In this document: positions 4,160 through 17,531 of the stretch, piece after piece | Numbering within the stretch: position 1 is the first letter of the stretch | Layout of the letters: each line of letters begins with the position of its first letter | NCBI GenBank assembly: GCA_049860595.1 | Contig: CP187551.1 | DNA from: Methanocaldococcus sp. 16A | GTDB taxonomy: Archaea > AGJL01 > Methanococci > Methanococcales > Methanocaldococcaceae | Direction: 5' to 3' (one strand) | DNA: 64,000 bases | Program-made: the position numbers and the translations under genes | Notes under the pieces: model-generated | Databases searched by the model: none | Told to the model about the DNA's origin: nothing | Seen by the model: the letters and a program-made list of their open reading frames with translations, nothing else

Positions 4160-5087
4160 ATTTCAAACTGCTCTTAAGAAATATTTTGATAAATATAAAA
4201 CTCATCCCAGATATGAATTTTGGATTAAAGATCACCTATGGAAAGTAGGCATTCCCAATTCTGAGGTGCTAGATTATATTTATAATATTGTAGAATATAT
4301 TCATAAAAACTACCTATCCTCTTTTAAAAAAAATGAGATTAAAATCTTAGATCTTGGTTGTGGTATGGGTGAGTTTGCAGTATTCTTATCCTTATCAGGC
4401 TATTATGTTGTTGGAGTTGACATGGATAAAGAACAACTAAAAATAGCAAAAATTCTTAAAGAAGAAAATAAAGCTAAAGTTGAGTTTATTAATACTGATG
4501 CAACGAAATTACCATTCAAAGATGAAGAATTCGATATTATTATCTGTTTTGATGTTTTTGAGCATGTAGATGATTTGCAACCCATATGTAACGAAATGTG
4601 GAGGATATTAAAGAACGATGGAGTAATTTTTCTCAGATTTCCAAACAAATTAAAAGGCTATGAAGATCATGTCGGTCTACCTTTACTTCCTTTACTCCCG
4701 GAAAGAATCTTTCAATTTGTTTTTAGAAAAATAATAAAAAGTCGAAAATATTACCAAGAGGGTCTATATGTCTATTATAGAAGATTCTCAGAAGTTTATC
4801 AAGTATTAACGGCTGCAAATTTTCACATTTCTCAGCTACCCGAACATTTAATGTTTCCTCGATTACCTAGAATGTACAAACGATTGATTCGAAATAACGT
4901 TCAATACATACCAATAATCTCACCATATTTTCATTTTTTGCTTACAAAGAAACCTGTTGATAGTTCATTACAAAATCTAGATATAAGGAAAATAAAATTA
5001 TTCGAGTTCATATGGTGGTTCTTCGTTTTGATCATTTCCATTGCTAGTGTTTTTAAAAATACAATATCCAAAAAGAACAGGAGGTAA
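4146..5087 (+). CDS. Class I SAM-dependent methyltransferase (possible glycan O-methyltransferase)
   Basis: ILDLGCGMG, DATKLPF, FDIIICFDVFEHV; overlaps the GT4 gene. Confidence 0.85.
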   Translation: MKTDKFQTALKKYFDKYKTHPRYEFWIKDHLWKVGIPNSEVLDYIYNIVEYIHKNYLSSFKKNEIKILDLGCGMGEFAVFLSLSGYYVVGVDMDKEQLKIAKILKEENKAKVEFINTDATKLPFKDEEFDIIICFDVFEHVDDLQPICNEMWRILKNDGVIFLRFPNKLKGYEDHVGLPLLPLLPERIFQFVFRKIIKSRKYYQEGLYVYYRRFSEVYQVLTAANFHISQLPEHLMFPRLPRMYKRLIRNNVQYIPIISPYFHFLLTKKPVDSSLQNLDIRKIKLFEFIWWFFVLIISIASVFKNTISKKNRR

Positions 5088-5091
5088 CAAA

Positions 5092-6681
5092 ATGTCACCA
5101 AAAGTTCTAGTTATTGGTTTAGATGGAGCAACATGGAATCTAATCAAACCTTGGACTGATAAAGGAGAATTACCAACATTTAAAAAACTAATGGAAAATG
5201 GAGTTTGGGGTAATTTGGAATCCACGATTCCGCCTTGGACTATTCCTGCCTGGGAATCCATGAGTACTGGAAAGAATCCAAAAAAACTGGGTTTTGCTAC
5301 ATTTATGGTGAAAGACGGCTACAAATTCGTCCCTCATAACTTCAAGCACAAACGACAAAAAATGATATGGGATATTCTATCTGACTCCAATTATAATGTT
5401 GTTGTAGCTAATTTGCCGAATATTTACGTAGCTCAAAAAATTAATGGATGCATGATTGCTGGATGGCTTTGCTTGGATAAGAATCGTATTACGTATCCTC
5501 CTAATCTAATCAATGAACTAAATGAGCATTGCAATGGATATGAAATTGATATTTTTGATGTTGATTTTGAGAATGGTCGAATAACTGATGGTCCTGGAGA
5601 TAATGAATACTTAAAACGCTGTGAAGAGTTATTAGAAAAACATTTTTTTGCCTTTACATACCTACTGAAGAAATATATGTGGGATTTTGGATTTATTGTG
5701 TTTGTAACCCCTGACAGAATTCAACATAAATACTGGAATAGTAATATTTTACTTGAACATTACAAGAAGATAGATTCAAAATTGAAAGAATTACTTGACA
5801 AAATAAATGATGAAACTATCATTTTTTTAGTTTCAGATCATGGATTCGGATGTGTTAAATACATACTTAACATAAATGAATTCCTTATAAAAGAGGGTTA
5901 TCTAAAATTAAAAAAACCACCAAAACAAATGTTATCTAGGCTATTCACCATTATAAAGGAGAGTACACTGCTGCCTATTGCAAAAGCTCTTGTTAATCGA
6001 CTGCCTCACACTATAGCCAAATACTTGAAGAAAAAAGCATCACCTATAAGCTTTGAAAAAATGGATATAGATTGGAGTTACACAAAAGCCTTTGCATATG
6101 GTGTTTTTGGAGATGTATATCTAAATGTTAAAGGAAGAGAACCAAATGGTATTGTAGATCCTGATGAATATGATAAAGTACGAGAAGAAATTATTGAAAA
6201 GATAAAAAACATAGAATATAAAGGGAAAAAACTAAACATACAAATTTTTAAAAAAGAAGAAGTTTATCCAAATGCTACTTTATGGGATAATCTTCCAGAT
6301 TTAGTAATAGTACCTACTGATGATGGCATACATGCAATAAATCCGAACATTGGAAGCGGTAAGATAATAACAGAATCAAACGGATCTAATGGAGATCACA
6401 GACTTTATGGTATCTTCCTTGCTTATGGCCCAGGAATTAAGAAGGGTTACAAAATAGAAAATGTTAAAGTTTATGATATAGCGCCAACAATCCTCCATAT
6501 CTTCAGCTTACCAATCCCAAATGATATGGACGGAAAAGTGTTAACGAATATATTTGAAAAAGACTCGGAATTTGCAAAGAAAGAGATTAAATATGTGGAT
6601 ACAAGTTATTACGAGAAAAAACAAGAAGATGAAAAACTCAAAAAAGCTATTAAAAACCTAAGGCTCAAAGGAAAAATCTAA
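5092..6681 (+). CDS. Alkaline phosphatase superfamily / type I phosphodiesterase-nucleotide pyrophosphatase family protein
   Basis: IGLDGA, STIPPWTIPAW (Thr nucleophile), DRIQH, SDHG, GDH. Start moved to ATG 5092, behind GGAGGT. Confidence 0.85.
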   Translation: MSPKVLVIGLDGATWNLIKPWTDKGELPTFKKLMENGVWGNLESTIPPWTIPAWESMSTGKNPKKLGFATFMVKDGYKFVPHNFKHKRQKMIWDILSDSNYNVVVANLPNIYVAQKINGCMIAGWLCLDKNRITYPPNLINELNEHCNGYEIDIFDVDFENGRITDGPGDNEYLKRCEELLEKHFFAFTYLLKKYMWDFGFIVFVTPDRIQHKYWNSNILLEHYKKIDSKLKELLDKINDETIIFLVSDHGFGCVKYILNINEFLIKEGYLKLKKPPKQMLSRLFTIIKESTLLPIAKALVNRLPHTIAKYLKKKASPISFEKMDIDWSYTKAFAYGVFGDVYLNVKGREPNGIVDPDEYDKVREEIIEKIKNIEYKGKKLNIQIFKKEEVYPNATLWDNLPDLVIVPTDDGIHAINPNIGSGKIITESNGSNGDHRLYGIFLAYGPGIKKGYKIENVKVYDIAPTILHIFSLPIPNDMDGKVLTNIFEKDSEFAKKEIKYVDTSYYEKKQEDEKLKKAIKNLRLKGKI

Positions 6682-8087
6682 AACTTCTTGTCAAGTATTG
6701 TTCTCAATTTCTTCCTTTCATCTTCTTTAAGCATTTTATTTAACTTGTCCACGAATATTGATGTAACCTCCTTATCTGTTATTGGATGCTGTTCAAAAGG
6801 GTCTTTCTTGAGGTCAAAGAGCCACTGGACGCCATCATCTGGAGCGTAGAGGAGCTTGTACCTCCCCAGAATTAAGACCTTCTTCTCATACCCATAACCA
6901 GCCGCCTCGGAGAGCAAAGGCCTTTTCTTGTTATTAACCTCAAAAAGATTCTGTCCATCAAAAGTTAAATTATGAGAAACACCCAGCAGATCCAAAATTG
7001 TAGGCATAACATCAACGGAACTAACCCTGTTTTCAGTAAAATCACCTTTTTTCTTAATAGCTCCATCAAATAAAACCGGCACCTCAATAATCTCATTGAA
7101 AACATTATGCCCATGCCCCACACCGTAATAACCTCTAGGATCATAGAAATTATCAGCCTCAAGTTTTGCATGCTCCCAGAACTCCTCGCCATGATCCGAT
7201 GTAATCAAGAGAATTGTAGAATTCAACAAGCCAGAGTCTTCAAGAAATGCATAAAAACTCTCTATAGCGTAATCAACGTATCTAAGTGTATTGTTATAAA
7301 GCAACATTCTATTTCTTCTATATTTCTCAAATTCTTTTCCTTTTTGTTCTTCAGGCCTTCTGAAATCCCACCGCTCAATATTTGGAATATTCCCCACTTG
7401 TCCAAAGTAATTCCTAAACTTTTCTGGCGGTACTATGGGCTCATGAACATCTCCAAGGTGCAGATATACAAAGAAGGAGTTTTTTCTTTTTGATATCCAT
7501 TTTCTCAGGTCATTCAGTAGTTCTTCAGCGAGAGTATCTCCAAGATAGAACTTGGGGACAACCCTACTTTTCAAAGGGTAGCTTGCAACATCAATCGCTG
7601 TTCCAAAGTATATCTCATATCCAAGTGCAAAGAGTATTTCGGGCAGAGTCAGCACACTTTTCTTAATTGGCTTAAATGCTTTAAGAATATCTAAATTTTT
7701 TATCTTGCTGTGAATATAGGCGTTGTGGTTGTGGGGGTAAAGACCTGTTAAAATCGACGCTACTGAAGGATATGTCCATGGTGCAGCTGAAATTGCTCTA
7801 AACTTTGCCTTCAGAGAATCCATGAAGGGCGTTGTTTCTCTTTGATACCCAGTAAATGAGAGGTTGGAATAGCGGAGGCAGTCCACTGTTAGAATAATCA
7901 CATTCAAGTCGGGCTTATTTGAAGTGTCAATATACTCGTCAAAATTTATGTTTTTGATCCTCGAATAGAGATCCTTTTTAGCTTTTCTCCCTTGATACTG
8001 GTTGTAAACTCTAAGTGCAAGCCTTTTTGTGGTATCATTCCGTTTAACAATACTCTTGGCAATAGTGGTTATATACTTAAATACCAT
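6678..8087 (-). CDS. Sulfatase-like hydrolase/transferase (AlkP superfamily, Thr instead of formylglycine precursor)
   Basis: TVDCLR, APWTYPSVASILTG, DVHEP, SDHGEE, GHG, LFDLKKDPFE. Start at 8087, behind GGAGGG. Visibly GC-richer than the flanks. Confidence 0.85.
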   Translation of the reverse strand: MVFKYITTIAKSIVKRNDTTKRLALRVYNQYQGRKAKKDLYSRIKNINFDEYIDTSNKPDLNVIILTVDCLRYSNLSFTGYQRETTPFMDSLKAKFRAISAAPWTYPSVASILTGLYPHNHNAYIHSKIKNLDILKAFKPIKKSVLTLPEILFALGYEIYFGTAIDVASYPLKSRVVPKFYLGDTLAEELLNDLRKWISKRKNSFFVYLHLGDVHEPIVPPEKFRNYFGQVGNIPNIERWDFRRPEEQKGKEFEKYRRNRMLLYNNTLRYVDYAIESFYAFLEDSGLLNSTILLITSDHGEEFWEHAKLEADNFYDPRGYYGVGHGHNVFNEIIEVPVLFDGAIKKKGDFTENRVSSVDVMPTILDLLGVSHNLTFDGQNLFEVNNKKRPLLSEAAGYGYEKKVLILGRYKLLYAPDDGVQWLFDLKKDPFEQHPITDKEVTSIFVDKLNKMLKEDERKKLRTILDKKF

Positions 8088-8110
8088 AGCACTCCCTCCA
8101 TTTTTCCCTT

Positions 8111-9637
8111 TCAAACAAACTTCCTTAAAATTTTCTTTATTATCTTTAAATCAACCTCCAATTTCTTCTCTATCTCCAAAAACAGCTTAACGTCCTCTTT
8201 ATCAACACTTCTACTAAGCAAAACCAAGAAGAAGTAAACTCCCAAAAACACTGTAAGGACAGGAATTGCATACCATATGCTTGGTACTTTCAGGTGCAAG
8301 CTCTGAATTAGTCCCAATAGAACAAAACTTATTACCAAAGGCTTCACGTAATTCCAGCTGAAGGGATGAATTTTAGTCTCCTTATAGAGCTTTAGCGAGT
8401 TTAGAACATTTCCAACAAAGTAAGATATAGCGGTAGCTATTGCAGCTCCCTCCATACCATAAATCGGAATTAAGAAAGTATTTAGTATAACATTAAAGAC
8501 TGCAGAAACTAGACCTGATACCATAATAAATTTGCTTTTTCCGATCACAAGGAGACTCAGTCCGTTTAATCCTAAGAAAGTGTGAAACATAAAACCCATA
8601 GCCAAGATTTGAAGCGCTTTACATGCTTCCAAATACTTTTCTCCGAAGAAAAATCCAATTGTAGCCTCTGGGAAGAGAAACATTAAAATAAACAAAGGTA
8701 ATGTGACAAAAAATATCCACTTTGTTAATACTTGATAAACCCTACTCATTTCTTTAATTTTTCCCTGAGCATAGAGAGCTGTAGCTAAGGGAGGGTAGAT
8801 GAAACCAGCAGAATATAAAACTATAGGTAAAAGCTTTGCTAATGGAGCTGCAGCATTGTATAATCCAACAGCTTCTGAAGTTTTATAGTATCCAAGCATC
8901 AAAGTATCTGTCCATGTCATTATAAATCCAGCAATTCCTGTAAACATCAGAGGAATCGAAAATCTTATCAATTCTTTTCCTAATTTTAAATTGATAGAAT
9001 CAAGTTTAAACAATCCTCGTCTAAACACATTTATAACTAATGCAAAGAACGTAATAACTTGAGCTATTAAATATGCTACAAAAATGTAATAAAACTCTAC
9101 TTTCATAATAACTCCAATTCCTATAAAAGAAAACCATAGAAGTGGATACAATATATTCTGAAAATAAACTTTTTCCCTAACTCTTCCGAATCCTTGAGAA
9201 ATTGATATAAAAGTACCTGTTAAAGCCAAAAAAGGAAGTGCAAGCGATATTAACTTCAAAGCATAAGTCAATCGTTCTTCATTGAATATCTGAGCAAGAT
9301 AAGCAGACCCAAAAATCAGAAATGCTGTAAAAGCTAAACTTGTTAATAATATAATTATTAAAGCAGTTGATATTAAAGATCCTATTTTTGAAGGTTCTTT
9401 TTCCTTATAAAAAGCAATTTCCCTTGGAAGAGAATTTGGAAATCCAAGCGTAGCAATTATAATAGCTATATTGAGAATTGTCAAGGCTAAGTTATAAACT
9501 CCATATTCAGCAGTAGAAAAATACCTTGCTATAATTACCACGCTTAAAAACCCAAAGAACATTGAAATGATTGTCCCCACAAATACTATTCCAGCTCCTC
9601 TCGCAATTCCATGCAGAACTTTATTAACTTCACTCAA
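8111..9637 (-). CDS. Wzx/MATE-like oligosaccharide flippase
   Basis: IARYFSTAEYGVYNLA, WTDTLMLGYY, LIPIYGMEGAAIATA; multi-pass membrane protein. Confidence 0.9.
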   Translation of the reverse strand: MSEVNKVLHGIARGAGIVFVGTIISMFFGFLSVVIIARYFSTAEYGVYNLALTILNIAIIIATLGFPNSLPREIAFYKEKEPSKIGSLISTALIIILLTSLAFTAFLIFGSAYLAQIFNEERLTYALKLISLALPFLALTGTFISISQGFGRVREKVYFQNILYPLLWFSFIGIGVIMKVEFYYIFVAYLIAQVITFFALVINVFRRGLFKLDSINLKLGKELIRFSIPLMFTGIAGFIMTWTDTLMLGYYKTSEAVGLYNAAAPLAKLLPIVLYSAGFIYPPLATALYAQGKIKEMSRVYQVLTKWIFFVTLPLFILMFLFPEATIGFFFGEKYLEACKALQILAMGFMFHTFLGLNGLSLLVIGKSKFIMVSGLVSAVFNVILNTFLIPIYGMEGAAIATAISYFVGNVLNSLKLYKETKIHPFSWNYVKPLVISFVLLGLIQSLHLKVPSIWYAIPVLTVFLGVYFFLVLLSRSVDKEDVKLFLEIEKKLEVDLKIIKKILRKFV

Positions 9638-9701: not shown

Positions 9702-10081
9702 GAGTGTGTCTAAAATCGAGTAATATTTATATATTAATATAATAACGAAATAAAAAAATATGGTAGCAAAAAGATGGGATACGAGAATATATGATATAAA
9801 CGAGATATTGGAGGTTTTTGATGACGTTATGGGGAGTATAAAATTACCTAAGGAATTAAAGCCAAGAAAATATTGTATCGAACTACTACTTAAAGTTTCT
9901 GTTATTAAGGAGTTTTTAGGAGTATCGTTAAGAGCTATGGAAATCTTGACAGAGGTGTTTTTTGGAGCTAAAATTGACCATTCAGTAATCTATTACTGGG
10001 AAAAGAAACTAAATAACTATATTATATCGATAGTAAATCAAATTCTTAGGAAACTATGGAGTTTCTATCTTAGACATACTC
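9702..10081 (+). mobile_element. Internally deleted IS element (MITE-like, 380 bp)
   Basis: Left end GAGTGTGTCTAAAATCGA vs reverse complement of right end GAGTATGTCTAAGATAGA (15/18). Flanked by a TCC direct repeat (9699-9701, 10082-10084). Confidence 0.85.
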
Positions 10082-10113
10082 TCCGTAAAAAATATATACC
10101 TAATGCAATTTAA
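9760..10113 (+). pseudogene. Truncated transposase, N-terminal HTH region only (IS5/IS4-like)
   Basis: GVSLRAME...IDHSVIYYWEKKL HTH-like segment, no DDE domain. The ORF runs through the right TIR. Confidence 0.7.
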
Positions 10114-10146
10114 TTAAATATCATTAAATATAATTAAGGTGAAAAG

Positions 10147-10374
10147 ATGTCAGATGAGAGGAAATATACTACTGTTTCAATACCAATCCAACTTTATGAA
10201 AAGATTAAAAAAAGAATTGAAGGTACTGGATTTACATCTGTCTCAGATTATGTAACCTATGTTTTGAGGGAAGTTTTAGCAAGTTTAGAAGAGGAAGAGA
10301 AAGAAGAAGTATTTAGTGAGGAGGAAGAGGAGAAGGTTAAAGAGAGATTAAGAGCATTAGGATATTTAGACTAA
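10147..10374 (+). CDS. Ribbon-helix-helix (CopG-type) protein with acidic C-terminal ERLRALGYLD tail
   Basis: TTVSIP..LYEKIK...GFTSVSDYV RHH pattern; AAGGTGA RBS. Confidence 0.85.
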   Translation: MSDERKYTTVSIPIQLYEKIKKRIEGTGFTSVSDYVTYVLREVLASLEEEEKEEVFSEEEEEKVKERLRALGYLD

Positions 10375-10377
10375 TAG

Positions 10378-10401
10378 ATTTTTTGCATATTTTTTATTTT
10401 T
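10378..10401 (+). terminator. Putative oligo-T terminator between the RHH gene and sat
   Basis: Several T runs directly after the stop codon. Confidence 0.35.
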
Positions 10402-10437
10402 AATTAAACTTAATTAAATATCATTATGGTGATAATA

Positions 10438-11586
10438 ATGGTCTCAAAGCCACATGGAGGAAAATTAGTTAGAAAATTATTATCTGAGAAAAGTAAAGAG
10501 AGAATTTTAGAAGAAAAAGATGAATATCAAAAAATAAGTATTAGGGAAGGAACTGCAATAGACATTGAAAATATTGCACATGGAATATACTCCCCACTTG
10601 AAGGGTTTTTAAGAGAAGAAGAATTTCAACATGTTTTAGATAATATGAGATTGCCTGATGATTTACCATGGAGCATTCCTATAGTTTTAGATGTAAAAGA
10701 AGAGGATTTAAAATTTGATGTTGGAGATGAAATCCTTTTATATCATGGAGATATTCCAGTTGCAGTTATGAATGTTGATGATATCTACAAATATGATAAG
10801 AAAGAATTTGCTCAAAAAGTCTTTAAAACAACAGATATAGATCATCCTGGAGTAGCAAAAGTTTATAATATGAATGAATATCTTGTTGGTGGAGAGATTA
10901 GACTTTTAAATGAATTGCCTAACCCCTTTGAAAAATACACCTTAAGACCAATAGAAACAAGAGTGTTATTTAAAGAGAGAAAATTTGAAACTATTGTAGC
11001 ATTTCAAACGAGGAATGTTCCTCATTTAGGGCATGAATATTTACAAAAATCTGCATTAACCTTTGTTGATGGATTGTTTATAAACCCAGTTTTAGGAAAG
11101 AAAAAGAAAGGCGATTATAAAGATGAAGTTATTTTGAAAGCATATGAAACATTATTTAAGCACTACTATCCAAAGGATTCAGCAGTTTTGGCAACAGTTA
11201 GATATGAGATGAGATATGCCGGGCCAAGAGAAGCAATACACCACGCAATAATGAGGAAGAATTTTGGATGCACACACTTTATTGTTGGAAGAGACCATGC
11301 AGGGGTTGGAAATTATTACGGTCCTTACGAAGCACAAGAAATATTTAAAAACTTCCCTGATTTGGGAATAACGCCAATGTTCTTTAAAGAATTCTTCTAT
11401 TGTAAGAAATGTAAAGGAATAGTAAATGAAAGAATCTGTCCTCACCCAATGGAAGATAGAGAATATTTCAGTGGAACTAAAATCAGAAATATGATTGTTA
11501 ATGGTGAAATACCTCCAGAATACTTCATGAGAAAAGAGGTTTATGAAACAATAATGAGTTTTGAAAACCCATTTGTGGATGGTTAA
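10438..11586 (+). CDS. sat: Sulfate adenylyltransferase (ATP sulfurylase)
   Basis: PHGGKL, AFQTRNVPHLGHE, RYAGPREA, VGRDHAG, Zn site CKKC..CPH. Start at 10438, behind GGTGAT. Confidence 0.97.
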   Translation: MVSKPHGGKLVRKLLSEKSKERILEEKDEYQKISIREGTAIDIENIAHGIYSPLEGFLREEEFQHVLDNMRLPDDLPWSIPIVLDVKEEDLKFDVGDEILLYHGDIPVAVMNVDDIYKYDKKEFAQKVFKTTDIDHPGVAKVYNMNEYLVGGEIRLLNELPNPFEKYTLRPIETRVLFKERKFETIVAFQTRNVPHLGHEYLQKSALTFVDGLFINPVLGKKKKGDYKDEVILKAYETLFKHYYPKDSAVLATVRYEMRYAGPREAIHHAIMRKNFGCTHFIVGRDHAGVGNYYGPYEAQEIFKNFPDLGITPMFFKEFFYCKKCKGIVNERICPHPMEDREYFSGTKIRNMIVNGEIPPEYFMRKEVYETIMSFENPFVDG

Positions 11587-11587
11587 T

Positions 11588-12520
11588 ATGCTAATAATTC
11601 ACCATTGGGATACTGATGGAATAACTTCAGCAGCTTTAACAGTTAAAGCTTTAAATTTAGAGGATTTTATAAATGTAATTCCACCAATTGGTGAGTTTAG
11701 ATTTGATGAAAGAATATGGAAAAAAATTGAACAGGCAGAAAAAGTTTATGTTTTGGATTTAAATCTCCCGCAAGAAGTAGAAAATATTAACAAGGAAACA
11801 ATATTCATCGATCATCACATACAAAAAAGGATTGAAAATCCAAATGTTAAGCAAATAAATCCAGTTTTAGAAGGTAAAAATTTTCCATCTGCATCTTTTG
11901 TGGTTTCAGATTATTTCTCATACTGGAACTGTTTATCTGCACTTGGAGCTGTGGGGGATATTGGAGAGAAGGCATTTAACATTTCAAAAGTTAAAAAACT
12001 TCTGAATTTGGAAGAAATTGATAGGGAAGATGCATTAAAATTGGTTCAATTGATTGATTCAAATTATATTGTAATGGAAAGAGATGAGGTTGAAAATGCC
12101 GTGAAAGTTATTTTAAACTTAGAGCCAAAAGAACTTTTAGAGTATGAAAAATGGAATAAGAATCTTGAAAAAATCAATGATGCAATAGAAGATGCAATTT
12201 CAAATATAATAGTTAAAAATGGAATCGCATTTATTAAATTTGAGAGTAAATTTAACATTATCTCAAAAGTTGCAAGGAAAGTCGTTTGGAAAATGGGTTA
12301 TGATGGAGCAGTAGTTGTAAATGAAGATTTTAACGGAAAAGCACAGATATATTTCAGAATTTCATCTAATTTAACTGACAAAATAAAGATGGCTGAACTT
12401 ATCCAAACATTAAAAGACAAAAATTACAACGCTGGTGGGAAGAAGGATGTCTTAGGATGTATTTTGGAAAAAAGTGATGTTGATGATGTTTTGAAAATTA
12501 TTAATACATATTTAAGGTGA
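11588..12520 (+). CDS. DHH-family phosphoesterase, likely PAP (3'-phosphoadenosine 5'-phosphate) phosphatase
   Basis: HHWDTDG, VLD, IDHH, AGG; lies between sat and cysC. Start at ATG 11588. Confidence 0.8.
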   Translation: MLIIHHWDTDGITSAALTVKALNLEDFINVIPPIGEFRFDERIWKKIEQAEKVYVLDLNLPQEVENINKETIFIDHHIQKRIENPNVKQINPVLEGKNFPSASFVVSDYFSYWNCLSALGAVGDIGEKAFNISKVKKLLNLEEIDREDALKLVQLIDSNYIVMERDEVENAVKVILNLEPKELLEYEKWNKNLEKINDAIEDAISNIIVKNGIAFIKFESKFNIISKVARKVVWKMGYDGAVVVNEDFNGKAQIYFRISSNLTDKIKMAELIQTLKDKNYNAGGKKDVLGCILEKSDVDDVLKIINTYLR

Positions 12521-12524
12521 TAGA

Positions 12525-13916
12525 ATGGAGAATGTAAAAAAAGCATTTGTTATTGGCTTAGATTCTGCACCTCCAGAACTTTTATTTGATAAGTTATTAG
12601 ATAAATTGCCAAACATAAAAAAACTTTTAGAGAAATCAATATATGGCCCTATGAAAAGTTGTATTCCTGCTATAACCATTCCTGCCTGGATGGTGATGGC
12701 TACTGGTAAAACTCCAGGAGAATTAGGGCTTTATGGATTTAGGCATAGAAAAAAAGGAACTTATAATGATATTTGGATTGCTCACAGTTTGATGGTTAAA
12801 GAAAAAGCAGTATGGGATTATTTAGGGGAAGTAGGGAAAAAATCAATCTTAGTTGGCGTTCCTCCAAGTTATCCTCCAAAGCCTATTAAAGGACATTTGA
12901 TTTCTTGCTTTATAACCCCTGATGCATCAGTTAATTACACTTACCCAAAATCTCTCAAAAGTGAAATAGAAAACCTCGTTGGAGAGTATATATTTGACGT
13001 GGTTTTTAGGAAGGACAATAGAGATGAGGTAAAAGAATTACTTTGGGAGATGACTGAGAAGAGGTTTGAAGTTATAAGATACCTAATTCAAGAAAAAGAT
13101 TGGGACTATTTCCAATTTGTTGAAATTGGTTTGGATAGAGTCCATCATGCATTCTGGAAGTATTTTGATGAAAATCATCATTTATATCCAGGGGATGACA
13201 ATCCCTACAAAAATGTTATTCCGGATTATTACAAACTTCTCGATAAGGAAATTGGAAAAACTTTAAAATTATTAGATTTGGATGAAACCGCTGTTATTAT
13301 CGTTTCAGACCATGGTATAAAGGCGATGAAAGGGGCTTTTGCAATAAACCAGTGGTTGATTGAGGAAGGGTTATTAAAGATTAAAAATCCAGAGATTTTA
13401 GAATCTGGAAAACAGGTGAGATTTGAAGATTTGGATGTGGATTGGAAGAATACAATAGCATGGGCTTGGGGAGGTTATTACGCAAGAATCTTCCTCAATG
13501 TTGAGGGAAGAGAACCAAATGGTATAATAAAACCAGAAGATTACCATAAAGTTAGAGATGAAGTTGCTGAAATTATTAGAAGCATTAGGGGGCCAAATGG
13601 AGAGAGATGGGATACTAAGGTGTTCTATCCAGAGGATATATATCCAGAAACAAATGGAGATAAGCCAGATATGATGGTTTATTTAGACAATTTGTGTTGG
13701 AGGTCTGCTGGAACTTTGGGTTATGATAGCCCATATCTTTTAGAGAATGATACAGGGCCTGATGATGCGGTTCATTCTGAATATGGGGTATTTTCTATTT
13801 ATTTACCAGGAATGGAGGAAAGTAAGCAAATTACCTCAACTATTTATGACTTTGCTCCTACGGTTTTAAAGCTCTTTGGGATAGAAAAAAATCTTAGGGG
13901 GAGAAGTATAGTATGA
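12525..13916 (+). CDS. Alkaline phosphatase superfamily / nucleotide pyrophosphatase-like protein within the PAPS operon
   Basis: IGLDSA, PAITIPAW (Thr), DRVHH, SDHG, GPDDAVH. Confidence 0.85.
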   Translation: MENVKKAFVIGLDSAPPELLFDKLLDKLPNIKKLLEKSIYGPMKSCIPAITIPAWMVMATGKTPGELGLYGFRHRKKGTYNDIWIAHSLMVKEKAVWDYLGEVGKKSILVGVPPSYPPKPIKGHLISCFITPDASVNYTYPKSLKSEIENLVGEYIFDVVFRKDNRDEVKELLWEMTEKRFEVIRYLIQEKDWDYFQFVEIGLDRVHHAFWKYFDENHHLYPGDDNPYKNVIPDYYKLLDKEIGKTLKLLDLDETAVIIVSDHGIKAMKGAFAINQWLIEEGLLKIKNPEILESGKQVRFEDLDVDWKNTIAWAWGGYYARIFLNVEGREPNGIIKPEDYHKVRDEVAEIIRSIRGPNGERWDTKVFYPEDIYPETNGDKPDMMVYLDNLCWRSAGTLGYDSPYLLENDTGPDDAVHSEYGVFSIYLPGMEESKQITSTIYDFAPTVLKLFGIEKNLRGRSIV

Positions 13917-14452
13917 AGCAGGAAAAATCTTATATGGGATTTACAATCTGGCTCACAGGTCCTAGTGGTGCTGGAAAAACCACATTAGCTAATGCTTTAA
14001 AGAAAAAACTTAAAGAAATGGGTTACAAAGTTGAGATCTTAGATGGAGATGAAATAAGAAATTCCCTATATCCAAATTTGGGGTTTAGTAAAGAGGCAAG
14101 AGAGATGCATAATAAAGTAGTTATTCACATGGCTAAATTGTTATCAAGAAATGGAGTAATTGCAATAGTCTCTCTAATTTCTCCCTACAAATCTGTTAGG
14201 GAGTATGCGAGAAAAGAGATTGGGAGATTTATGGAGGTTTATGTTTATGCTCCTTTAGAGGAAAGAATTAAAAGAGACCCAAAAGGACTTTATGCTAAGG
14301 CATTGAAAGGAGAAATAAAAGGATTAACTGGCTATGATGGAGTTTATGAAGAGCCAGATAATCCAGAAGTTAAAGTTGACACTTCCAAAATGAGTGTTGA
14401 TGAGGAAGTTGAAATAGTAATCAAAAAGGCAAAGGAATTAAATTATCTTTAA
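13913..14452 (+). CDS. cysC: Adenylylsulfate (APS) kinase
   Basis: IWLTGPSGAGKTT, LDGDEIR, RDPKGLY, TGYDGVYEEP. Confidence 0.96.
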   Translation: MKQEKSYMGFTIWLTGPSGAGKTTLANALKKKLKEMGYKVEILDGDEIRNSLYPNLGFSKEAREMHNKVVIHMAKLLSRNGVIAIVSLISPYKSVREYARKEIGRFMEVYVYAPLEERIKRDPKGLYAKALKGEIKGLTGYDGVYEEPDNPEVKVDTSKMSVDEEVEIVIKKAKELNYL

Positions 14453-14462
14453 AGTGAGCCCT

Positions 14463-15212
14463 ATGGAATTCATATTTATAATTCTTGGGTTTGTTGTTGG
14501 GTTTCTTGTGGGTTTAACTGGAATTGGGGGAGGCGTTTTAATGACTCCTTTATTAATATTTTTGGGAGTGGAACCTCTTATAGCAGTTGGGACTGATTTA
14601 CTGTATGCTGCAATAACCAAGATTGTAGGGGCTATTTTACACAATAAAAAAGGGAATATAAATATTAACATTGCTCTAAAATTATTCTTAGGGAGTTTAC
14701 CAGCTATAATAGTTGGTTCTATAGTTTTAAGGTTGGTTGATAGAGTGGAGATAAACAATTTTTTAACAATAATACTTGGTGTAATTTTAATAATCACTTC
14801 TATTATAAATTTGAAAGGACGATTTGTAAAAAAAATATGCTTTAGTTCATCTGTTTTAGTGTTCTTTGGATTTTTAGTAGGTTTGATAGTCCAATTTACA
14901 TCAGTTGGTAGTGGTGTTTTAGTAACTCTTGCATTAACGAATTTCACAAAACTTTTACCAAGATCTGTTGTTGGAACAAGTATTTTCTATGGCCTCTTAT
15001 TAACTTCGCTCAGTACTTTGAGCCATATAAGTTTGGGAAATGTTGATTACAGTTTAGCTTTATCGCTAATACTTGGAACCATTCCTGGAGTTTATGTTGG
15101 GACCTATGTGAATTCTAACATCCCACAGGACAAACTTAGGAAATTTATTAATTTGATAATTTTATTTATGGGAATTTATATTTTAGAATGTAACCTATTA
15201 AAATTTGTTTAA
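14463..15212 (+). CDS. TauE/SafE (TSUP) sulfur-compound transporter
   Basis: GLTGIGGG, AVGTDL, SVGSG, VVGTS; two-repeat membrane protein. ATG 14463 or GTG 14454. Confidence 0.88.
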   Translation: MEFIFIILGFVVGFLVGLTGIGGGVLMTPLLIFLGVEPLIAVGTDLLYAAITKIVGAILHNKKGNININIALKLFLGSLPAIIVGSIVLRLVDRVEINNFLTIILGVILIITSIINLKGRFVKKICFSSSVLVFFGFLVGLIVQFTSVGSGVLVTLALTNFTKLLPRSVVGTSIFYGLLLTSLSTLSHISLGNVDYSLALSLILGTIPGVYVGTYVNSNIPQDKLRKFINLIILFMGIYILECNLLKFV

Positions 15213-15326: not shown

Positions 15327-16382
15327 TTATAAAATTCTTTTTATAGCATTCCAAATTAAGAAAGATTGAGGCTTTAAACTTCCATCTATTGGATTTAAAA
15401 ACAATATATTTTTTTTAATTAAGAATTCTTTGGTGTCCTCATCAATCAAGTATTCGTCAATTGTGTAGGTATCTTTGAATAAAGAAAGTGCTTTAACAAC
15501 GTTATCATAGGATATATTTTCAAACTTGTTATTTTTTATTTTTATAAGTAATTTCTTTATCTTTGATTTTTCTATGTTTAACATCGTCTCTAAAATTTCT
15601 TTAAGCTTATTATATCTCATTTTATCTATAACTTTTAAAATTAAAATGGGCTTTCCCCCCACATAAGAGTAAATTAACTCTTTCTCTTCGTTAGAGAGAT
15701 TTCTATTTAACAACTCTTTAGCTAAGATATCCATAAACTTAAAAGCAGTCTCTCTATCGAAATCATCCACCAAAATATAATCAGCTCTATCATTGAGCAT
15801 TGCCTCATTATAAACCTTCTCAATAAATAAGCTATCAGAGCTTAAACAGAAAACATGGCATAGATGTTTGTGCTTAGTTAAAGAGATGAAGTAGTTAAAA
15901 AGTTCATATATTAAAAATCCATTAATTTTCATGTCACCAATTTTTTGTAATTCGTCGAGGATAATAACTGGCTGTTTGCCTTGCTTTTTTAACTCTAACA
16001 AAATATTAGTTATATATTTGAAAACATTTTTAGTTGTTTTTTTATTTAACAACTCATTTAACGTATTTTTAGGTACAGGAATGCCACTAACAACAGGAAT
16101 ATCTTTAATTAGCCCTTTAATAATCTCTAATGGTTTTTTATCTCCGCTGTATTCTTCAAACAACACCTCTATAAACTCCTCATATTTTGATAAAAATATC
16201 TCCCTCAAATCAAAATAAAAAACTATATACCTATTTTTATCCAACCTGTTGTTAATTATCTCATTAATTAATGCTGTCTTTCCACTGTTTATAGGGCCAA
16301 ATATAAAGTAAATAAAATTAGGCTCCCCTTCTATAATAGATAAAATTTCTTTTATTTCCTTTTCTCTATCAAAGAATTTCAT
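15327..16382 (-). CDS. MJ-type archaeal ATPase (ATPase_2 / STAND-like) paralog 1
   Basis: [32 protein letters not shown]. Confidence 0.88.
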
Positions 16383-16396
16383 TTTTAACACCCTAA

Positions 16397-17494
16397 TTAA
16401 AGTATTTCTTTTATAGCGTTCCAAACTAAGAAAGACTGAGGTTTTAAACTTCCTTCAATAGGATTCAAAAATAAAATATTTCTTTTAATTAAGAACTCTC
16501 TAATTTTTTTAGGTATTTTTATATCTTCAATTTTATACTCTTTCTTAAATAAACTTAAATTATCAACAACCTTTTTATAGAGTTCTTCATCTTCTTCTTT
16601 AACATCTTCTAAGAAGTATTTTAATTTCTGAATTTCTTCTTTTAACATTAAATCTAAAATTTCTTTTAACTCTTTAAATTTCCTTTCTTCAACAACATAC
16701 TTTATATCCTTTGCTTTTCCACCTACATAAGAATAGATTAATTCTTTATCCTCATTAGTCAAGTTTATATTATTTTCTTTAGCTAAAAAATCCATAAACT
16801 TTAGAGCTTTATCTTTAGAGAAATCATCTACTAAAACATATTTAGCTCTACCCTCCAACATTGCCTCATTATAAACTCTCTCAATAAATAAACTATCTGA
16901 ACTTAAACAAAAAACATAAGCTACATGTAACTCTTTAGTTAATCTAACAAAAAAGTTAAAAAGTTTATAAATTAAAAATCCATTAATCTTCAAATCACCA
17001 ATAACTTGCAATTCGTCTATAATTAAAATAGATTTTTTGCCTTTTTTATTTATTTCAATAAAATACTCTTCTAAGAATTCAAAAATATCCTCTATATTGT
17101 CTTTTTTCAACAATAGTTGTGTTAATAAATTTTTAGGTATTGGTATTCCGCTAACAACTCCTCCTGATAACTTAGATATTATAGTTGATTTTATAACCTC
17201 TGGAAGGTCTTTTACTAAAGACAATAGAGCAGTTTTTATCTTATCAATCAAAGATTCCTCATAAACATTAAATAAAACCTTTAAAAACTTATCATAATCA
17301 TCAATAAACCTTCCCCTAAGATTTATATAAAATACTACATACTTATTTTTATCTAACCTATTGTTAATTATCTCATTAATTAAGGCAGTTTTACCACTAT
17401 TTAATGGACCATAAATAAAATAAATATCATCCGATTCCTTATTTAAAATATGCAATATCTCATCAATTTCTTTTTCTCTATCAAAAAGTTTCAT
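16397..17494 (-). CDS. MJ-type archaeal ATPase paralog 2
   Basis: [27 protein letters not shown]. Confidence 0.88.
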
Positions 17495-17531
17495 TAGATT
17501 CACCATTTAATAACCTTCAAAACTTATTTTC

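Follow-up and report, generated by a model that had tools for sequence, protein, structure and literature searches.

Why should a small DNA-binding protein carry at its C-terminus a peptide that is also found at the ends of enzymes? The question is raised by a gene at the head of a sulfate-activation cassette in Methanocaldococcus sp. 16A, within a 64,000-nt stretch of contig CP187551.1 (assembly GCA_049860595.1; "the window" below, from a genome of 1.62 Mb). The gene (10147-10374, plus strand, stop codon 10372-10374) encodes a 75-aa protein, MSDERKYTTVSIPIQLYEKIKKRIEGTGFTSVSDYVTYVLREVLASLEEEEKEEVFSEEEEEKVKERLRALGYLD, made up of a putative ribbon-helix-helix (RHH) domain (residues ~1-45, 10147-10281), an acidic linker (residues 46-55, 10282-10311) and a tail module (F56-D75, 10312-10371, FSEEEEEKVKERLRALGYLD); its translation ends in ...EEEEEKVKERLRALGYLD. 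This layout matches exactly the one given in the original prediction, made from the sequence alone, which held that the tail is supplied in trans to a neighbouring AlkP-superfamily enzyme lacking it, either as a Tyr-O-sulfate carrier or as a peptide linking the state of the enzyme to autoregulation of the operon. We favour the view that the protein is an autoregulator of the cassette for 3'-phosphoadenosine 5'-phosphosulfate (PAPS), and that its tail docks in the cleft of a pyrophosphatase encoded in the same cassette and so couples transcription to the occupancy of that enzyme; we give this reading as a whole a probability of about 0.55. Its narrower part, that the protein binds DNA and acts as a regulator, is very likely correct.

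The small protein and the repeats before its gene

The RHH assignment has soft support, from a sequence pattern together with structure prediction; curated sequence models do not recognise the protein. The best NCBIfam match of the protein is the NikR subfamily model (E 0.0067, 16.5 bits, cut-off 119), a profile search of the PDB returned the NikR RHH domain with an E-value of 0.12, and none of the Pfam RHH families matched at E ≤0.01. At the same time, a TVSIP strand and a GTGFTS turn, as expected of a strand-helix-turn-helix pattern, are invariant in the relatives, and the AlphaFold2 (AF2) model, with a mean predicted local distance difference test (pLDDT) of 84.6, shows helices at residues 14-23, 32-52 and 58-70. 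The top Foldseek matches of this model are all RHH domains (ParD2, NikR, PrpA and ParD), with a root-mean-square deviation of 1.2-1.3 Å over 40-41 residues for NikR. The 75-aa protein thus appears to have the RHH fold.

The family is widespread in archaea. In a protein search 2029 of 2031 near-length candidates proved to be homologs at E ≤1e-3; the best 120, which belong to Archaeoglobi, Thermococci, Thermoplasmata, Korarchaeum and DPANN-type archaea, show 75-99% identity, and across archaeal phyla the identity is 60-99%. Where the databases name these relatives, they call them "CopG family" or "Arc/MetJ-type RHH". The gene is single-copy in its own genome, and the locus is 99% identical at the protein level to that of Methanocaldococcus sp. 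28A. Eleven relatives of 133-2000 aa, most of them ~212 aa long, included no RHH-AlkP fusion, in a database where matches to the tail alone cannot reach significance. In relatives of ~212 aa (P0121-P0126 and P0128) the RHH-plus-tail unit is preceded by an extra N-terminal RHH-like segment and a middle domain, which is precomputed as PF24434 in one of them.

A scan of a genome collection confirmed 321 RHH relatives, and the counts of loci given throughout refer to the best 80 of their loci. Within the 70 nt upstream of the RHH genes we found tandem 10-bp repeats with a TAATTAAAT-like core, conserved in other phyla. When compared with 228 control upstream regions from the same loci, the repeats stand out by every measure used: TAATTA occurs in 75 of 80 RHH upstream regions (7% of controls) and TAATTAAA in 62% (1% of controls), self-identity reaches 0.459 at a shift of 10 (controls, 0.298) and 0.407 at a shift of 20 (controls, 0.291), and successive repeat cores lie 10 bp apart in 37 of 40 cases. 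In 47 of 81 regions a TATA-like octamer with at most one mismatch precedes the first repeat core by no more than 45 nt.

In the window itself, three tandem 10-bp repeats (TAATTAAATA / TCATTAAATA / TAATTAAGGT) make up a candidate operator, O1, at 10109-10145 on the plus strand (core 10112-10138), which runs into the Shine-Dalgarno sequence GGTGA of the RHH gene; upstream of them an A/T-rich TATA-like element, read from the sequence as a presumed promoter, occupies 10087-10098 (plus strand). A second candidate operator with its Shine-Dalgarno sequence, O2, is found before sat at 10399-10435 (plus strand, core 10402-10428). O1 and O2 are 84% identical over their 37 nt and have the same orientation, the first directly preceding the RHH gene and the second sat; strain 28A has the same arrangement. 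The triple repeat occurs three times in the 1.62-Mb genome, where a Markov-1 model expects 0, and two of the occurrences flank the RHH gene. Tandem repeats of this kind are to be expected of an autoregulatory operator that overlaps the transcription start, and the autoregulation proposed in the original prediction fits this conserved candidate site. The motif was not found in five Methanococcales operons of the order Sat-DHH-CysC-TauE that lack the RHH gene. A scan for sigma-70 promoters and hairpin terminators, which is unsuited to archaea, returned nothing useful.

The third triple TAATTAAAT-type repeat of the genome lies at G000:C1:1430628-1430654 (L133 5129-5155, minus strand), where it overlaps the stop codon of an 873-aa open reading frame (ORF). 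We considered it as a promoter site of a wider regulon and set it aside: two genes converge on it, and it is unlikely to be a promoter site.

The tail module and its modelled partner

The tail follows the motif [YFL]-S-x-E-[ED]-E-E-x-[IV]-K-E-R-L-[RK]-x-L-G-Y-[LIM], and our definition of the module allows S or T at position 2, an acidic run, and an end one to two residues after the Tyr. Six of its residues, F56, K65, L68, L71, G72 and Y73, are invariant in 40 RHH sequences. The same module is found on enzymes. The window encodes another AlkP, of 546 aa (5041-6681, ending in KKAIKNLRLKGKI), and among its best 150 homologs from an exhaustive representative search the tail motif stands at the C-terminus of 63, as the original prediction had stated for many sulfatase/AlkP-family proteins ("E+L+ALGY"). 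Another 53, including the window's own copy (KNLRLKGKI), end in a basic helix (...K.LK..GKI), and 34 have neither ending. A hidden Markov model (HMM) built from the 63 enzyme tails alone picked out the RHH protein as the best of 11,045 six-frame ORFs of its own genome (36.3 bits, E 1.7e-9), the second match (E 0.003) being internal to its ORF, and the RHH tail has either the most frequent residue or a listed alternative at 19 of 21 enzyme-tail positions. In seven tailed AlkPs the tail has no Pfam match, even at E-values up to 1. Judged by sequence, the tail is a real portable module common to the RHH protein and AlkP enzymes.

Matches to the RHH-tail profile were seen in 8 of 40 Methanococcales genomes, 106 of 401 Thermoplasmatota genomes and 67 of 401 genomes of the phylum holding Geoglobus, nearly all of them in ORFs of ~80 aa. 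The tail is also carried by an APS (adenosine 5'-phosphosulfate) kinase, a sulfatase, six PF01663 proteins of Thermoplasmatota and a protein weakly resembling sulfotransferases, and the genes of tailed enzymes often lie among glycosyltransferase genes. Within RHH loci the enzyme-tail HMM found CysD-type C-termini (...MQRLRALGYM) and some CysC proteins, and none of 47 Sat or 44 DHH proteins; 8 of 56 CysC proteins there end in LGY no more than two residues from the terminus. The end of archaeal CysD (sulfate adenylyltransferase subunit 2) in these loci, which the enzyme-tail HMM finds at E-values of 1e-4 to 5e-6, aligns with that of the solved CysD 1zun (chain A, ...MEEKKRQGY); the CysD tail differs from that of the RHH protein in being part of an enzyme of 260-300 aa. 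A short C-terminal module is thereby defined on a large share of an uncharacterised AlkP family as well as on CysC, sulfatase and CysD, and it may serve sulfate-ester metabolism more generally, as a lid or for docking.

Three other roles for the tail were dropped on sequence inspection: a C-terminal Tyr motif of the proteasome-activator type (the position of the Tyr varies between -2 and -3), a membrane-targeting helix (too specifically conserved) and a PCNA-binding motif (out of register). The sulfatase next to the 546-aa AlkP (6678-8114, minus strand, ending in ERKKLRTILDKKF) has a similar basic helix at its end, which, together with P0133-P0268, may represent a second tail type. In another Methanocaldococcus (L101, G020:C1:1165891-1165935) a 16-codon open frame encodes the end of the tail alone (...KVKERLRVLGYLD, stop), in a genome with no match to the Sat query, the 463-aa AlkP query or the full-length RHH protein; it looks like the remnant of a decayed cassette.

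The AlkP enzyme of the cassette itself (12525-13916, plus strand; PF01663, Pfam Phosphodiest 2.5e-47) is 463 aa long, ends in LRGRSIV and has no tail; we call it AlkP463. The tail is likewise absent from all 26 complete orthologs in RHH loci and from the 120 closest homologs (445-477 aa), in agreement with the original prediction, which had described the operon enzyme as tail-less and had also given correctly the endings of all three AlkP/sulfatase proteins and of CysC (KELNYL).

A complex model of AlkP463 (27-row alignment) with RHH residues 46-75 (taken from the 40-sequence alignment, 38 rows used) scored 0.85, and the best of three controls scored 0.01. Of solved complexes, 116 of 157 attained this mark, and of mismatched pairs, 2 of 215; these figures apply approximately, the present model having used our own alignments. 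Runs agreed in at least 85% of contacts, with a partner pLDDT of at least 71. The contacts involve tail residues 55-56, 60-61, 63-65 and 67-75, among them all the invariant ones, and enzyme residues 50-52, 71-73, 83-89, 116-117, 129-136, 158-163, 205, 299-300, 315-318, 395-397 and 408-413, most of which are themselves invariant (including 50-52, 71-73, 205, 315-318 and 395-397). T51 of AlkP463 aligns with the TFPN threonine of the NPP structure 2gsn and the CxPS cysteine of sulfatase 6hhm, which we take to be the catalytic nucleophiles. We found no solved homolog of the tail-AlkP pair that the model could have memorised, and no PDB relative of a tailed AlkP.

The modelling suggested with the original prediction had a supportive outcome, with the tail predicted to lie over the cleft that includes T51. 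As to whether the Tyr itself reaches the active site, which the original prediction had asked, the best-defined contacts of Tyr73 in the model are enzyme residues 71-73, not T51. The model speaks for a tail docked over the catalytic-Thr cleft of the operon enzyme, itself tail-less, without demonstrating it, and we regard physical binding of the tail to AlkP463 as probable.

What this enzyme does can be gathered from its relatives, according to the available parts of the papers cited here. In T. onnurineus, TON_1704 to TON_1707 are APS kinase, pyrophosphatase, PAP phosphatase and ATP sulfurylase (PMC4463584), and TON_1705 is tabulated as an inorganic pyrophosphatase (PPase) with a Km of 18.8 uM, a kcat of 2.1 per s and a pH optimum of 9.5 (PMC9653972). 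The AlkP of the P. yayanosii cluster is described as a presumed enzyme for degrading inorganic pyrophosphate (PPi; PMC8268124), and a P. yayanosii AlkP is among the closest homologs of AlkP463. Because of the gene order in Thermococcus loci and this P. yayanosii description, we take TON_1705 to be the ortholog of AlkP463. In a coupled assay of ATP sulfurylase and APS kinase from M. thermolithotrophicus the pyrophosphatase activity was rate-limiting, and its authors stress rapid PPi degradation (PMC10322725). AlkP463 is, then, a probable pyrophosphatase. The Tyr-O-sulfate carrier of the original prediction finds no support in this comparison, its enzyme having a characterised inorganic pyrophosphatase as ortholog and nothing in the available texts suggesting sulfotransfer. 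The same goes for the analogy with DltX, a small membrane protein of the dlt operon with a conserved C-terminal Tyr motif that serves as an acyl shuttle: the RHH protein is predicted to be a soluble DNA-binding fold without a membrane segment, no search gave any sequence or context similarity (no comparison with DltX itself was run), the family and protein searches with it yielded RHH/CopG-type names and no others, and there were no dlt genes among the neighbours examined.

A proposed coupling of transcription to the enzyme, and its rivals

In the mechanism we propose, RHH dimers would occupy a site of two to four TAATTAAAT repeats, 10 bp each and in tandem, that separates the TATA-like element from the ribosome-binding site; in the window, the RHH gene and sat are each preceded by a site of this kind. 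Repression is suggested because such a site would overlap the transcription start. The flexible acidic linker would tether the 20-residue helix-plus-GY[LI] tail, which would dock in trans to the AlkP-type pyrophosphatase, itself without a tail, in the cleft of its active site and make that enzyme the "trigger enzyme" partner of its own regulator. Idle enzyme would hold the tails and act as co-repressor, and PPi made by ATP sulfurylase would compete for the cleft, free the tail and relieve repression, a competition suggested because the modelled interface overlaps the catalytic cleft. Conservation, synteny, the operator motif, the homology of the tail module and the phyletic link in Methanococcales are established here and the docking is supported by a model, while we infer the direction of control, the PPi competition and repression itself. 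If correct, the mechanism gives a testable rule for when the cassette switches on. The shared module, the tail-less AlkP, the docking model and the candidate operator speak in favour of the proposal that the tail works in trans, and it is the sulfate shuttle and a strictly complementary distribution of tail and enzyme that lack support.

A phyletic link between the regulator and the enzyme is seen in the 40 Methanococcales genomes: the same six hold both RHH and AlkP463 (6/6), and five others have Sat-DHH-CysC-TauE with neither. Several observations weigh against our reading. The Methanococcales genomes are kin, and their co-occurrence may amount to one or two inheritance events. No AlkP-family gene is present in 44 of 80 RHH loci, or in 28 of the 60 with at least 4 kb of downstream sequence, and the tail is equally invariant in these loci; because it is unchanged there, AlkP463 is not its universal partner. 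Five genomes with AlkP-less RHH loci do have PF01663 proteins elsewhere, but such proteins are common anyway (11 of 14 control genomes), and none of the eight long ORFs in the PF01663 loci of those five genomes carries an LGY tail. The complementary distribution expected in the original prediction is not strict in other ways: three genomes (G094, G130 and G140) hold both the RHH protein and a tailed enzyme, and the operon of locus L140 reads RHH(tail)-Sat-CysC(tail). As the distribution is not complementary, the tail must have a role beyond AlkP463, and with the tail also on CysC, a sulfotransferase-like protein, sulfatase and CysD, a metabolon scaffold or a general lid would fit at least as well. 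On the modelling side, the complex score is the confidence of a model of a 30-residue fragment with the one partner modelled, AlkP463, and the AF2 model of a tailed AlkP alone (core pLDDT ~98, linker 54, tail helix 76-82) is compatible with docking in cis, without proving it. As for the fold, none of the curated RHH sequence models of Pfam and NCBIfam passes its own cut-off on the protein, and all Foldseek E-values are above 1.

A simpler account does without any contact between regulator and enzyme: the protein would be a plain autoregulator, its tail a Mnt-like self-association helix for cooperative binding to the repeats, and on enzymes the same helix would bring about mere oligomerisation. 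Tandem 10-bp repeats call for cooperativity between dimers; the module, an acidic half followed by a basic amphipathic half, would suit antiparallel pairing; it is found on unrelated folds, stays invariant in loci without an AlkP gene, and has a confident AF2 helix at residues 58-70. We nevertheless consider this account improbable, given that the AlkP cleft is the specific place of the tail in the complex model, whose controls are clean, that an invariant G-Y-[LI] at the extreme C-terminus is unusual for a coiled coil, and that RHH and AlkP463 go together in the Methanococcales, where five Sat operons lack both. It is quite improbable, too, that the tail is a docking tag for some other hub of a sulfate-activation or sulfation metabolon (e.g. 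ATP sulfurylase or a membrane glycan-sulfation complex), for which the RHH protein would compete with the tagged enzymes, leaving the AlkP pose as a model artefact or a secondary site. The choice of tagged proteins (CysC, sulfotransferase-like protein, sulfatases, AlkPs and CysD, with no Sat or DHH) would suit such a hub, as would the L140 operon, the glycosyltransferase genes around tagged enzymes and the 28 well-covered RHH loci without an AlkP gene. Against it, no candidate hub emerged from the analysis, seven loci have CysD/N in the place of Sat, the RHH-AlkP-CysC loci are without Sat, and the sole pair modelled, the tail with AlkP463, passed strongly.

The most daring chemistry would make the invariant Tyr73 a covalent carrier, which would receive a sulfuryl or phosphoryl group at the active site of the AlkP enzyme and then carry or signal it. 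AlkP-superfamily enzymes form covalent intermediates and can transfer to alcohols, and the modelled tail covers the cleft with the nucleophile-position T51. On the other hand, the best-defined contacts of Tyr73 are residues other than T51, the orthologous enzyme is reported as a hydrolytic PPase in the available text, Pfam and NCBIfam show no sulfotransferase signature in the AlkP, and the tail is also on P-loop enzymes (CysC), where such chemistry makes no sense; we find this explanation hardly credible. An extension of our own reading, which is possible and on balance doubtful, sees in the tail a portable pseudo-substrate plug for AlkP-superfamily sites, so that RHH repressor and pyrophosphatase would form a PPi-sensing switch setting the transcription of the PAPS cassette, with the flux through ATP sulfurylase read out as PPi in the cleft; in its boldest form, the invariant Tyr would be transiently phosphorylated from the phospho-Thr intermediate of the enzyme. 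If true, archaea would have a trigger-enzyme switch with the build of a toxin-antitoxin module.

Coupling by docking would have close counterparts among known regulators. RHH antitoxins of the ParD, RelB and CcdA class have an N-terminal RHH dimer, autoregulation and a flexible C-terminal tail that goes onto a protein encoded downstream, as the docked tail would here, and antitoxin tails occupy the toxin; ParD2 and ParD RHH domains are among the top fold matches of our protein. Unlike antitoxins, it has housekeeping-type metabolic enzymes as neighbours, 60-99% identity across phyla and a tail shared with enzymes. No toxin gene adjoins the RHH gene, the neighbours being Sat, CysD/N, DHH, AlkP and CysC, with PIN_9 farther downstream in some loci. 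In Bacillus the C-terminal tails of TnrA and GlnR bind glutamine synthetase, a case of trigger-enzyme control in which an enzyme of metabolism senses how heavily it is loaded and binds a C-terminal tail on the transcription factor of its pathway, much as proposed here; the differences lie in the fold (RHH versus MerR-type), the enzyme, the domain of life, and the tail, here modelled inside the active-site cleft. NikR, whose RHH domain is the best match in sequence and structure, MetJ and Mnt likewise carry an added element on their RHH, for sensing or oligomerising, and their operators are tandem or repeated sites, as the candidate operators here would be, but the present protein has no ACT-like metal domain and no known small-molecule co-repressor, and its C-terminal element has just 20 residues. 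If the coupling of enzyme and regulator is true, the antitoxin-like design of a tail in the active site of its partner extends from addiction modules to core metabolism.

Archaeal sulfate activation has, to our knowledge, no regulator whose action has been worked out. Work on the cluster in T. onnurineus, P. yayanosii and M. thermolithotrophicus has dealt with its enzymes one at a time, and in the available texts its first gene received one speculative sentence. In P. yayanosii the cluster has the same five-gene order (copG-like, ATP sulfurylase, DHH pApase, type I phosphodiesterase/pyrophosphatase and APS kinase), and its first gene, PYCH_17520, is named a "putative copG transcription factor" that "potentially regulates the pathway" (PMC8268124). 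A probable regulatory role for the gene is therefore already in print, as speculation, and the available part of that paper describes no operator, tail or partner. New, in the sense of not found in the literature (supplements aside), are the candidate operator, the shared tail module, its spread over enzymes of the sulfate pathway and the modelled docking.

The cassette, its variants and its neighbourhood

In the window, the RHH gene is followed on the plus strand by sat, encoding ATP sulfurylase (10426-11586; Pfam ATP-sulfurylase 2.9e-92 and PUA_2, NCBIfam NF003166). The mechanical ORF begins at 10426; the true start is likely the ATG at 10438 behind GGTGA, at the same position as the start in strain 28A (GTG), and the second repeat block would then end just before the ribosome-binding site. 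Next come a DHH/DHHA1 phosphoesterase of the pAp (3'-phosphoadenosine 5'-phosphate) phosphatase type (11561-12520, plus strand; Pfam DHH and DHHA1), whose orthologs have been characterised as pAp phosphatases according to the available texts of PMC4463584, PMC8268124 and PMC10322725, then AlkP463 and, still on the plus strand, the APS kinase gene cysC (13913-14452; Pfam APS_kinase 2.4e-58), whose product has in KELNYL an ending that weakly resembles the tail motif. The cassette closes with a gene for a TauE/SafE-type anion exporter (14454-15212, plus strand; Pfam TauE 1.5e-46), and TauE follows CysC in 9 of 80 RHH loci.

The original prediction had named as a counter-sign an RHH-tail protein common in unrelated contexts; the gene context we found is very constant. 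The gene directly downstream of RHH is co-directional in 79 of 80 loci and nearly always belongs to sulfate activation; it is Sat in 49, the 463-aa type of AlkP in 14, DHH in four, a short AlkP in three and another gene in nine. Pfam was consulted for seven of these nine, and gave CysD/PAPS_reduct in five (L012, L014-type, L057, L076 and L077), AglB in one (L006) and a sulfotransferase in one (L029). Further downstream in RHH loci we found CysN, CysC, small sulfotransferases, Na/sulfate symporters and TauE. The gap between RHH and the next gene has a median of 10.5 nt (80 cases), and is 51 nt in the window and 58 nt in strain 28A. In the window it contains, after the RHH stop codon, the T-tracts that had been pointed out in the original prediction: three runs (T6, T6 and T5) at 10379-10384, 10390-10395 and 10397-10401 on the plus strand, which may be an archaeal oligo-T termination or attenuation signal specific to this lineage.

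Some of the loci depart from this pattern. A sulfotransferase of ~190 aa (PF00685/PF13469) was confirmed by Pfam in L012, L013, L017 and L029, none of which has AlkP463; possibly, RHH cassettes come in either a sulfotransferase or a 463-aa AlkP design. The CysD-type (PAPS_reduct) gene right after RHH is split by an intein with a LAGLIDADG domain in L057 (4726-6801) and L076 (1966-3993). In an Archaeoglobales metagenome-assembled genome (L006, 6496-8490) the RHH gene is followed, after a gap of 276 nt, by an AglB/STT3 oligosaccharyltransferase gene in place of sulfate genes, an arrangement that hints at a link to glycan modification.

Upstream of the RHH gene in the window, between it and a Wzx flippase gene, lies a 117-aa ORF (9760-10113, plus strand) with no Pfam or NCBIfam match. 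It is missing from the otherwise collinear locus of strain 28A (L004) and may be the remnant of an insertion; in another Methanocaldococcus (L148) a weak similarity to it, 29 residues long, adjoins the sat operon. Just downstream of the cassette, at 15327-17506 on the minus strand, two tandem paralogous ORFs of 365 and 369 aa carry a P-loop (GPxNSGKT).

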